Sequence record: MW269952.1
Origin: Escherichia phage P479
Length of the DNA stretch: 64,000 nt
Direction: 5' to 3' (one strand)
The stretch's first letter is position 1; each line of letters starts with the position of its first letter. This document shows, in pieces, positions 60,325-62,030 of this stretch. A program made the translations under genes and the position numbers. Below the pieces are notes generated by a model, which was not told the origin of the DNA, did not search any database, and saw only the letters and a list, made by a program, of their open reading frames with translations.

Positions 60325-61284
60325 ATGATGTTAGTTATTGGTTCTCGTGCATTACATAACGCTGGTCTGATTGAAAGTCAGAAAATTGAAAACTCTGATT
60401 GGGACTTTATCGCTGACCAGGGTTCCTGGAACAGCTTTAAAACCCAGATGATGGGGCAGCATGTGCATGTGGATAACCCAGATGTTCAAGCTTTTAAATG
60501 TATGCACAATGGTAAAGAAACCTATTTTGAAGCGTACATCGTCCGCGCACTGACAAGTGTTCGTGAGTTGACTGATGAGCTACAAGAGGAAGATTTTACA
60601 TCCAGTTATCGTCTGCTCAAATATGCGAAGGCAAATATTCAGAAAGACCGTCTATCTGGTTTTTACTGGGCGACTCCTGATATTTGTCTGGCAATTAAAT
60701 TGTCTCATCGTTACCTGAAGAACAATCCATTCTTCCTGAAGACCATGAGTCATATTAATTACCTTCGCAATAAGGGTGTTGTTCTTAATGATGAACTGCA
60801 GAAAATCATGCTGCAGCGCCAGGCAGAAACACTGTCATATAGTCACCCTAAACTAGACGTGGGTAAGAAAACTTTCTTTAATGATACAATCTATACCCTT
60901 GACCATGACTCCATCCACGAGGCTGTGGCGCTTGCTGATAAGCCTGCATATAAGTTCTATATGAAGGATGATTCAGAAGTCATGACCTCACGTGAAAAAT
61001 TTGAAGCACTCCCTGATGTTATTAAACTGGCAGGGGTTTATGAAGAAGCATGTGTGCTCGCTCTGGAGCGTTCGCAGGTTCCTAATGAGTTCAATATCTC
61101 TCCATCCGTGAGCTTCCATATTGCGCTGGAAAAAGTCTGCACCTCCATTACTTCTGGATGGTTCCGTGAGTATGCATGGGAACATTATCAGGACGTGGTT
61201 AATATGTATAACACACTGGGTCATGAAGACTATGTTAAACGTTTTAAGGCTAACCAACATTTAATTCGTCCTTTCGAAAAATAA
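60325..61284 (+). CDS. hypothetical 319-aa protein (N-terminal GS...D.D pattern weakly reminiscent of a nucleotidyltransferase fold)
   Basis: Largest ORF in the hyperplastic region; preceded by the conserved initiation region; family not recognised. Confidence 0.45.
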   Translation: MMLVIGSRALHNAGLIESQKIENSDWDFIADQGSWNSFKTQMMGQHVHVDNPDVQAFKCMHNGKETYFEAYIVRALTSVRELTDELQEEDFTSSYRLLKYAKANIQKDRLSGFYWATPDICLAIKLSHRYLKNNPFFLKTMSHINYLRNKGVVLNDELQKIMLQRQAETLSYSHPKLDVGKKTFFNDTIYTLDHDSIHEAVALADKPAYKFYMKDDSEVMTSREKFEALPDVIKLAGVYEEACVLALERSQVPNEFNISPSVSFHIALEKVCTSITSGWFREYAWEHYQDVVNMYNTLGHEDYVKRFKANQHLIRPFEK

Positions 61285-61286
61285 TT

Positions 61287-61330
61287 GTGTACATCCAAGT
61301 GGGACTATGACACAATGGTCCCACAATCAA
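61287..61330 (+). promoter_or_regulatory. early promoter plus stem-loop element (GTGTACATCCAA...; inverted repeat GTGGGAC/GTCCCAC)
   Basis: Shares GTGTACATCCAA with the 54444 element. Confidence 0.4.
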
Positions 61331-61343
61331 TGAGGAAAATATT

Positions 61344-62030
61344 ATGAACGGTCCGAAAACTTTTAATTCTAAAGCTCGTGCAGTAGGCGGATTTGCAGGT
61401 CATATTTCTAATGATGATATTAAAAACGAGCCTATGTTCTTTAACTGTGATTTGAATTTTGCTGCACAAAATGGCGGTCCTATTACTCGTAGCTTTATTA
61501 CTAATCTCCCTGATGAGTGGAAAGCCGTTGAATGTGTATTTGATTCCCGTGTACACATGTTAATGCCTGGCTGGTACCCTGCAATTCCAGGCTTCCACCA
61601 TGATGATGTACCACGTCCGGATATTCCGGTCGGTCAACACTTTATTACCGCAGGGCAACCTGATTATGATAATCCTCGATACCATTCTGAACATATTCTT
61701 GGTCTTGTTAACGCTGATGTGTGTCCTACTCATTTTGCAACCGGAACTGCCCAATTTAGTCAGATTCCTGAAGGCGAACTTATCTATCGCCAGTGGCATA
61801 AAGAAGTTCTGGAAAAAATTGAGTCCAATGAATTAACCAAGTGGGATGCTCCTGACCGCACGTTGCTCCAGTTTGATTGGCAGACATGGCATACAGGTTC
61901 TCGTGCAGTAAGTAATGGTTGGCGCTGGTTTGGTCGTGTGTCTCGTAATACTGACCGTGTTAAAAAGATTACAAATGAAATCCGCGTTAATGCTCAAGTA
62001 TATCTGGAATTCCCTATGGAGGGCTGGTAA
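61344..62030 (+). CDS. hypothetical 228-aa protein
   Basis: ORF with conserved initiation region; His- and Trp-rich; no family recognised. Confidence 0.45.
   Translation: MNGPKTFNSKARAVGGFAGHISNDDIKNEPMFFNCDLNFAAQNGGPITRSFITNLPDEWKAVECVFDSRVHMLMPGWYPAIPGFHHDDVPRPDIPVGQHFITAGQPDYDNPRYHSEHILGLVNADVCPTHFATGTAQFSQIPEGELIYRQWHKEVLEKIESNELTKWDAPDRTLLQFDWQTWHTGSRAVSNGWRWFGRVSRNTDRVKKITNEIRVNAQVYLEFPMEGW

Follow-up and report, generated by a model that had tools for sequence, protein, structure and literature searches.

Two sequence-orphan accessory genes of a T4-like Escherichia phage: a putative nucleotidyltransferase resembling MenT toxins and a putative Fe(II)/2-oxoglutarate-dependent dioxygenase

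In a 64,000-nucleotide stretch of the genome of Escherichia phage P479 (sequence record MW269952.1), referred to here as the window, two adjacent open reading frames (ORFs), P1 and P2, encode proteins that we propose to be a nucleotidyltransferase and an Fe(II)/2-oxoglutarate (2OG)-dependent dioxygenase, respectively. Both ORFs are present with the coordinates, the strand and the lengths, 319 and 228 amino acids (aa), given by the initial annotation, which had also remarked on the small size of their neighbours: between 58.2 and 63.3 kb, nearly all + strand ORFs compatible with the gene order encode 55-150 aa, the exception being a 195-aa e.2-like ORF (62030-62617). The immediate neighbours of P1 are a 55-aa ORF and P2, and P2 is followed on its 3' side by, in order, the e.2-like membrane protein, a 78-aa ORF, the Nudix hydrolase NudE and lysozyme e. 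The P1/P2 region is 85-95% identical to that of SP18/VR7-type T4-like phages, which annotated records class as Gaprivervirus. The features discussed below are the following, the ribosome-binding site being abbreviated RBS.

60325-61284, +: P1, 319 aa, putative nucleotidyltransferase; orthologue of RB69 ORF134c; phrog_2141
60328-60627, +: P1 aa 2-101, predicted N-terminal Pol-β-type nucleotidyltransferase core (from conservation and model)
60340-60345, +: P1 G6-S7
60397-60405, +: P1 D25-W-D27
60529-60531, +: P1 E69
60682-61239, +: P1 aa 120-305, helical C-terminal region (DUF7275), with K125 at 60697-60699
61344-62030, +: P2, 228 aa, putative Fe(II)/2OG-dependent dioxygenase; orthologue of RB69 ORF132c; phrog_1843
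61596-61604, +: P2 H85-H86-D87, proposed H-x-D iron ligands (from conservation)
61890-61892, +: P2 H183, proposed distal iron ligand (conserved in 53/54 relatives; model strand 182-184)
61923-61943, +: P2 R194…R198-x-S200, proposed to bind the C5-carboxylate of 2OG (model strand 192-201)
60312-60327, +: RBS/start cassette TGAGGAAAATATTATG before P1, exact 16-mer
61331-61346, +: RBS/start cassette TGAGGAAAATATTATG before P2, exact 16-mer
61299-61324, +: potential RNA hairpin in the 59-nucleotide P1-P2 spacer, 10-bp stem and 6-nucleotide loop, minimum free energy -17.4 kcal/mol
58150-58174, +: MotA-box-like middle promoter TGCTTCAGCAATGGCTGAGTATAAT, just upstream of the block of small ORFs

Both proteins had been called unassigned. 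This holds for their function, none having been assigned, and does not hold for their families. The only sequence-level matches of P1 are Pfam DUF7277 (aa 2-101), Pfam DUF7275 (aa 120-305) and phrog_2141, all without known function, and P2 is a member of phrog_1843. Moreover, both proteins bear automated labels in one GenBank record, that of Escherichia phage EAWsc9 (locus L001, PQ341120.1). Because the automated product names of small ORFs are unreliable in this record, where a 74-aa protein is called 'malate synthase' and other short ORFs 'type IV secretion system protein VirB3' or 'transposase', we take its labels for P1 and P2 as fold hints only. In RB69, both orthologues are annotated 'hypothetical'. 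The two families are large: clustering at 90% identity gave 2060 homologous clusters for P1 and 1322 for P2, and an exhaustive profile search gave 731 representatives of the P2 family at 50% identity.

From a G-S…D-x-D pattern near the start of the 319-aa protein, the initial annotation had ventured that it might be nucleotidyltransferase-like. The pattern is real, and the guess holds at the level of both fold and motif. Across 43 homologues, the most distant of which has 43% identity, no substitution is seen at G6, S7, D25, D27, E69 or K125, nor at H128, R129, D193-H194-D195, E240-E241, E248-R249 or in the S274-R281 block. An AlphaFold2 model of P1 built on the homologue alignment is confident (predicted local distance difference test score, pLDDT, 90.6; predicted template-modelling score, pTM, 0.82), and its fold resembles those of solved nucleotidyltransferases: an independent Foldseek search ranked MenT1 first (E 8e-4, probability 1.00, 184 columns, target-normalised template-modelling score 0.50), followed by other small nucleotidyltransferases, Cid1 and CCA/poly(A) enzymes. 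MenT1 is the top structural match of P1 by two methods. In the model, the residues I5-G6-S7, which match the hG[GS] motif of nucleotidyltransferases, lie at the junction between strand 2-5 and helix 7-12, and the invariant acidic residues are predicted to lie on strand 25-31 (D25-W-D27-F) and on strand 64-73 (E69). This arrangement, in which the G-S pair at the junction is followed by the D-x-D pair on the next strand and then by a strand bearing E69, is canonical for Pol-β-type nucleotidyltransferases. The structural matches reach only to about residue 185; the last ~130 residues have no match among PDB structures, and it is in them that the family's most conserved motifs lie. An HD-phosphohydrolase reading of the 'DHD…H' motif was set aside, as no HD-domain structure occurs among the fold matches.

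On this basis, P1 would be a Pol-β-superfamily nucleotidyltransferase consisting of a two-lobed core, nearest to MenT/AbiEii-type toxins, and of a family-specific helical C-terminal extension made up of the ~130 unmatched residues. D25, D27 and E69 would hold Mg2+ ions, G6-S7 and K125 would hold the phosphates of a nucleoside triphosphate, and the enzyme would transfer a nucleoside monophosphate to a hydroxyl acceptor. We consider P1 to be probably an active nucleotidyltransferase. By analogy with MenT1, Cid1 and the CCA/poly(A) enzymes, the acceptor that we favour is the 3'-hydroxyl of an RNA, although an RNA end as the substrate is a tentative suggestion, with the odds somewhat against it.

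The comparison with the MenT/AbiEii (DUF1814) toxins, such as Mycobacterium tuberculosis MenT1 (PDB 8AN4), deserves some detail. Like P1, these proteins have a two-lobed fold with a Pol-β-type N-terminal sheet and a helical second lobe; P1 further has an acidic D-x-D pair and an invariant lysine about 100 residues further on, a spacing similar to that between Asp and Lys in MenT proteins. More specifically, K125 lies 98-100 residues past D25/D27 in P1, the catalytic Asp-to-Lys spacing being 96 in MenT1, 109 in MenT3 and 102 in MenT4 (PMC10435456). MenT proteins have a Ser/Thr phospho-acceptor two residues before the catalytic aspartate; positions 23-24 of P1 are N-S. Unlike the MenT toxins, P1 has the extra conserved C-terminal region, and its gene resides in lytic phages, within a presumably pre-late block, rather than in a bacterial toxin-antitoxin or Abi locus. 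Several observations count against the kinship. The motif III/IV residues of MenT1 are K137 and D152, and P1 has no conserved acidic residue 15-22 residues after K125, that is, at the spacing of MenT1 D152. No match to the DUF1814/AbiEii/MenT family models was found, the 43 family members matching only DUF7277 and DUF7275 (Pfam, E up to 10). No conserved partner gene and no adjacent antitoxin was found at 51 divergent P1 loci. Finally, a tRNA gene lies within 4 kb of P1 at 3 of these 51 loci, as compared with about 8 of 52 P2 loci, so that there is no enrichment for P1, and proximity to tRNA genes lends no support to tRNA as its substrate. Because it lacks a sequence match, an acidic residue at the D152 spacing and an antitoxin or constant partner, P1 is best described as a nucleotidyltransferase resembling MenT, membership of the MenT/AbiEii family itself not being established.

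Instead of an RNA end, P1 could nucleotidylate the hydroxyl of a metabolite or of an antibiotic-like or signalling molecule, as a small-molecule nucleotidyltransferase of the ANT(2'') or Lnu kind. P1 is twice as large as enzymes of this kind, such as ANT(2'')-Ia (PDB 4XJE) and LnuA (PDB 4WH5), and has a C-terminal domain that they do not possess; it shares no sequence similarity with them and has no resistance context. We regard a small-molecule acceptor as unlikely.

Turning to P2, the initial annotation had described the protein as rich in His and Trp, citing FHHDD, HSEH and WRWFGR. These motifs are real and fall on conserved positions, namely H85 and D87, H117, and R194 and R198, respectively. 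In our reading, these residues would bind the metal and 2OG, or lie near those that do, in an Fe(II)/2OG dioxygenase; the annotation had not named this class. Conservation was assessed on 54 divergent relatives only 31-54% identical to P2: H85 is present in 54/54, D87 in 53/54 and H183 in 53/54, with H86 variable, while R194 is found in 54/54, R198 in 53/54 and S/T200 in 52/54. The conserved residues would thus supply the H-x-D/E…H facial triad expected of this class. The AlphaFold2 model of P2, which is also confident (pLDDT 89.2, pTM 0.86), predicts a double-stranded β-helix; R194, located 11 residues after H183, would be the basic 2OG-binding residue on the strand that follows the distal histidine, and it shares this strand with R198 and S200. 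A family-specific insert of ~30 residues follows the H-x-D motif; it is modelled partly with low confidence and contains the conserved residues R91, Q105 and H117. Together with R69 and R214, which are conserved as well, these residues hint at an anionic substrate.

These data are consistent with P2 being an Fe(II)/2OG-dependent dioxygenase in which iron would be bound by H85, D87 and H183, and 2OG by R194 with the help of R198/S200. The enzyme would hydroxylate or otherwise oxidise a probably anionic substrate, for example a small molecule or a nucleotide. We hold it very probable that P2 is an active oxygenase of this class. Its subfamily is another matter. PhyH-like structures rank first among the structural matches of P2, by a small margin (8.5 versus 7.1-7.7 for AlkB- and P4H-like structures), and the labels 'phytanoyl-CoA dioxygenase' and '2OG-Fe(II) oxygenase' that a few database records (including GenBank and UniRef) give to members of the family are automated. 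No PhyH or other 2OG Pfam model matched P2 or 36 homologues (E up to 10); P2 shares 6-15% identity with the PhyH-like Fe(II)/2OG dioxygenases EasH, EctD, ColD, proline hydroxylase H11 and human PAHX, from which it differs by being shorter and by its own insert after H-x-D. Membership of the PhyH subfamily is accordingly not established.

Long relatives of P2 were inspected for informative domain fusions, of which there are none: some members of 387-455 aa (P0256, P0291, P0344 and P0379) carry no Pfam domains and are tandem duplications, with an intact first copy and a second copy devoid of the H-x-D motif. This pairing of an intact copy with a degenerate one suggests that members of the family work as dimers and that pseudo-dimers can evolve from them.

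P2 is not confined to T4-like phages. One lambdoid-type phage that carries it also encodes a CI-like repressor, ERF and RusA; on a 611-kb bacterial contig it sits at a prophage edge; and it is further present in Klebsiella phage-plasmids with Rep3 and, at ~30% identity, in Mycobacterium, Gordonia, Pectobacterium and Cronobacter phages. In all these settings, P2 stands alone amid small early genes. When the neighbours of P2 were clustered over ~50 environmental viral loci, one recurrent partner stood out, a nicotinamide phosphoribosyltransferase (NAMPT; Pfam NAPRTase and NAMPT_N), which lies immediately 5' of P2 in six loci (L036, L042, L048, L070, L074 and L078), often with overlapping stop and start codons. 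Two of the six add a bifunctional NMNAT-Nudix protein and a macrodomain protein, and one adds two Nudix proteins and an RNA-repair-type HAD. A separate metagenome scan yielded two more divergent loci with the order NMNAT-NAMPT-P2. Altogether, P2 directly follows NAMPT in about eight divergent loci, with NMNAT-Nudix upstream in four. RNA repair forms a second, weaker context: in one lineage, P2 is surrounded by genes for an RNA ligase, a P-loop kinase and a metallophosphatase. Note that at the environmental phage loci L048/L224, L074, L078, L255 and L256, P2 sits in a block that mixes NAD-salvage and RNA-repair genes: NMNAT-Nudix, NAMPT, macrodomain, RNA ligase, HD_4 (RelA/SpoT-type) hydrolase and 'Swiss Army Knife' RNA-repair HAD.

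We know of no reaction that ties a 2OG oxygenase to NAD+ salvage. The setting nevertheless recalls NARP2, in which phage-encoded Nampt and Nmnat rebuild NAD+ in the face of NAD+-depleting defences. As published, this pathway comprises these two genes, includes no oxygenase and is found in ~1.1% of phages (bioRxiv 10.1101/2024.02.11.579819); the NARP3 paper mentions no oxygenase either. Given the rarity of NARP2 and its oxygenase-free description, we consider the association of P2 with NAMPT to be enriched and, as far as we could find, undescribed. Two facts temper its significance for P2 as a whole. NAMPT adjoins P2 in only ~8 of ~100 P2 loci outside T4-like phages, and the window itself encodes no NAMPT, NMNAT or macrodomain protein, so that the Nampt-Nmnat pair is missing here; the only NAD-related neighbour of P2 in the window is NudE, two genes downstream. 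A role linked to NAD is a doubtful proposition for P2. In more general terms, its stand-alone movement among unrelated phage types and its repeated NAD+-salvage neighbours suggest a metabolic or counter-defence role.

P2 might alternatively act on a macromolecule, as an AlkB-like nucleic-acid demethylase or repair enzyme, or as a protein hydroxylase of the ribosomal protein/EF-Tu type. The top-ranked structural neighbours of P2 are, however, all PhyH-like small-molecule oxygenases, the protein is small and lacks a nucleic-acid-binding extension, and its strongest recurrent neighbour is NAMPT and not an RNA-repair gene, all of which makes a macromolecular substrate rather improbable and leaves a small, probably anionic one as the preferred reading.

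Other observations weigh against the enzyme assignments as such. The single sequences of P1 and P2 found no match in NCBIfam or PADLOC, nor did P2 in Pfam or among PDB sequences; searches of PDB sequences with single sequences and profiles, and of Pfam with all members of both alignments (E up to 10), gave no link to a known nucleotidyltransferase or 2OG-oxygenase family; and a literature search by Pfam and PHROG identifiers and by ORF names retrieved no functional study of either family. It could be argued that one or both proteins are non-catalytic, being binding proteins or pseudo-enzymes built on a retained enzyme fold: no measured activity is reported for either family, and the degenerate second copy in the tandem relatives of P2 indicates that the fold tolerates the loss of the motif. 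Yet the near-total conservation of catalytic-type residues over deep divergence is what one expects of active enzymes, and the first copy of the duplicated P2 forms keeps the full motif, so that we deem this explanation very unlikely and retain catalysis by both proteins as the preferred one.

The initial annotation had taken the two ORFs together, and we asked of their distribution what it says about a unit; it does not support one. At ~25 T4-like loci of enterobacterial and Aeromonas phages, P1 and P2 lie next to each other, or within ~2-3 kb and in the same orientation, and adjacency is seen only in these phages. In 44RR-type Aeromonas phages they lie >100 kb apart, and no P1 match was found within 4 kb of P2 in divergent environmental viral loci, some of which stop at contig ends. 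On this distribution, we reject an obligate gene pair. The limited adjacency, the distance in 44RR-type phages and the variable spacer between the genes lead us to view P1 and P2, on genomic grounds, as two separate single-gene modules. A two-step pathway formed by the two enzymes, such as one that hypermodifies the DNA of RB69/JS98-type phages by sugar-nucleotide or base-modification chemistry, could appeal to the proximity of the genes in those ~25 loci and to the presence of both in RB69 and JS98 and of neither in T4, but it is largely refuted by the distribution, which includes lambdoid phages, phage-plasmids and actinophages for P2, and by the published gene set for arabinosyl-5-hydroxycytosine in RB69 (gp3, 28, 45-55 and 159, with 5-hydroxycytosine, 5hoC, made by a ThyA homologue), to which neither P1 nor P2 belongs (PMC13326640), and we regard it as extremely improbable.

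Confident homology to a characterised T4 gene of mundane function had been named as the finding that would speak against a special role for the two proteins. None was found over the whole T4 genome: tblastn gave nothing below E 0.8 and profile hidden Markov models gave no match at E <= 10 to any T4 six-frame ORF, the positive controls e.2 (2e-18) and nudE (2e-56) being recovered. In particular, neither method relates P1 or P2 to T4 nrdC.11, annotated as a 'nucleotidyltransferase'.

The common initiation region that the initial annotation had noticed before both ORFs proved to be the exact 16-mer TGAGGAAAATATTATG. It occurs four times in the window (at 55886, 60131, 60312 and 61331) as against 0.10 expected, a number reached in 0/100 shuffles. 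Because the likeness among the four copies, when aligned, ends at ~17 nucleotides, TGAGGAAAATATTATG reads as a recurrent RBS/start cassette of the phage that is not peculiar to P1 and P2, rather than as a piece of a longer mobile regulatory cassette. The other two copies, at 55886-55901 and 60131-60146 (+), precede small genes that start at 55899 and 60144, and the first of them is immediately preceded by GGGGCGAAAGCCCC, a GC-rich sequence that resembles a hairpin. The hairpin predicted in the P1-P2 spacer has a z score of -2.05, and 6/200 shuffles fold equally well. This spacer (61285-61343), which in the window holds only the hairpin, is a variable insertion point: VR7 carries there an extra 216-aa ORF annotated 'restriction endonuclease' (3657-4307 of L002), and RB69 carries the extra 101-aa ORF133c (4194-4499 of L168).

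As regards expression, the T4-type late promoter motif TATAAATA occurs 19 times in the whole window versus 5.25 expected, with no copy on the + strand from 50635 to the window end. The absence of this motif, together with the MotA-box-like site upstream of the small ORFs, makes pre-late expression of the P1/P2 block a reasonable inference from the promoter signals.

Some further features of the surroundings are worth recording. Four tandem small ORFs (96, 93, 72 and 77 aa; 58234-59286, +) are paralogues of one family, phrog_899, all with a terminal W-x-(S/N)-S-S…C tail, and at 28 of the 51 divergent phage loci, relatives of this family are found a few kb or less from P1, most of them upstream. 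The e.2-like membrane protein (+ strand) has 195 aa here as opposed to ~102 aa in the T4 e.2 annotation. Its tblastn match to T4 (17481-17960 of L165; 31.5% identity over 165 residues) extends past the annotated e.2 towards nudE, and this overrun could mean that the gene is truncated or split in T4, or that its annotation is wrong. Finally, the sole tRNA genes of the window, tRNA-Met (CAT) and tRNA-Arg (TCT), directly abut each other at 53068-53220 (+), ~7 kb upstream of P1; the equivalent region of T4 has eight.

Altogether, P1 and P2 would be two independent single-gene accessory enzymes residing in a pre-late, same-strand block of an SP18/VR7-type (Gaprivervirus-like) T4-like phage, and we lean towards the view that both are active and act independently. 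Their enzyme classes are well supported; the ORFs, residue conservation, fold classes, distribution and neighbourhoods are observed, and from them catalysis, substrates and biological roles are inferred. The host-takeover or anti-defence activity suggested by the initial annotation can be put forward for either protein as a hypothesis. In its most developed form, P2 would be an undescribed oxygenase arm of phage NAD+ counter-defence, beside Nampt/Nmnat (NARP2) and Nudix/macrodomain enzymes, that for example oxidatively destroys or converts an NAD-derived metabolite or immune signal, and P1, independently, would be a MenT-like enzyme that the phage carries without an antitoxin and that edits the 3' ends of RNA or tRNA, either in the course of takeover or against tRNA-targeting defences; that both parts hold together is decidedly speculative.

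In conclusion, P1 and P2 represent new sequence-orphan families inside well-known enzyme superfamilies, a moderately interesting and testable lead rather than a surprise. Both families are large and strongly conserved, and they are present in RB69, JS98, VR7, SP18 and many Klebsiella, Aeromonas and Serratia phages, which include model and therapy-relevant phages; the class assignments come with named catalytic residues, which makes both proteins testable by point mutation. Even if both proved to be enzymes of ordinary metabolism, there would be two fewer 'hypothetical proteins' in several hundred deposited phage genomes. If the bolder proposals were true, an antitoxin-less phage nucleotidyltransferase resembling MenT would represent a new use of a toxin fold, and a 2OG oxygenase recurring with NARP2 genes would introduce a new type of chemistry into the contest over NAD+ that phages wage with bacterial immunity.

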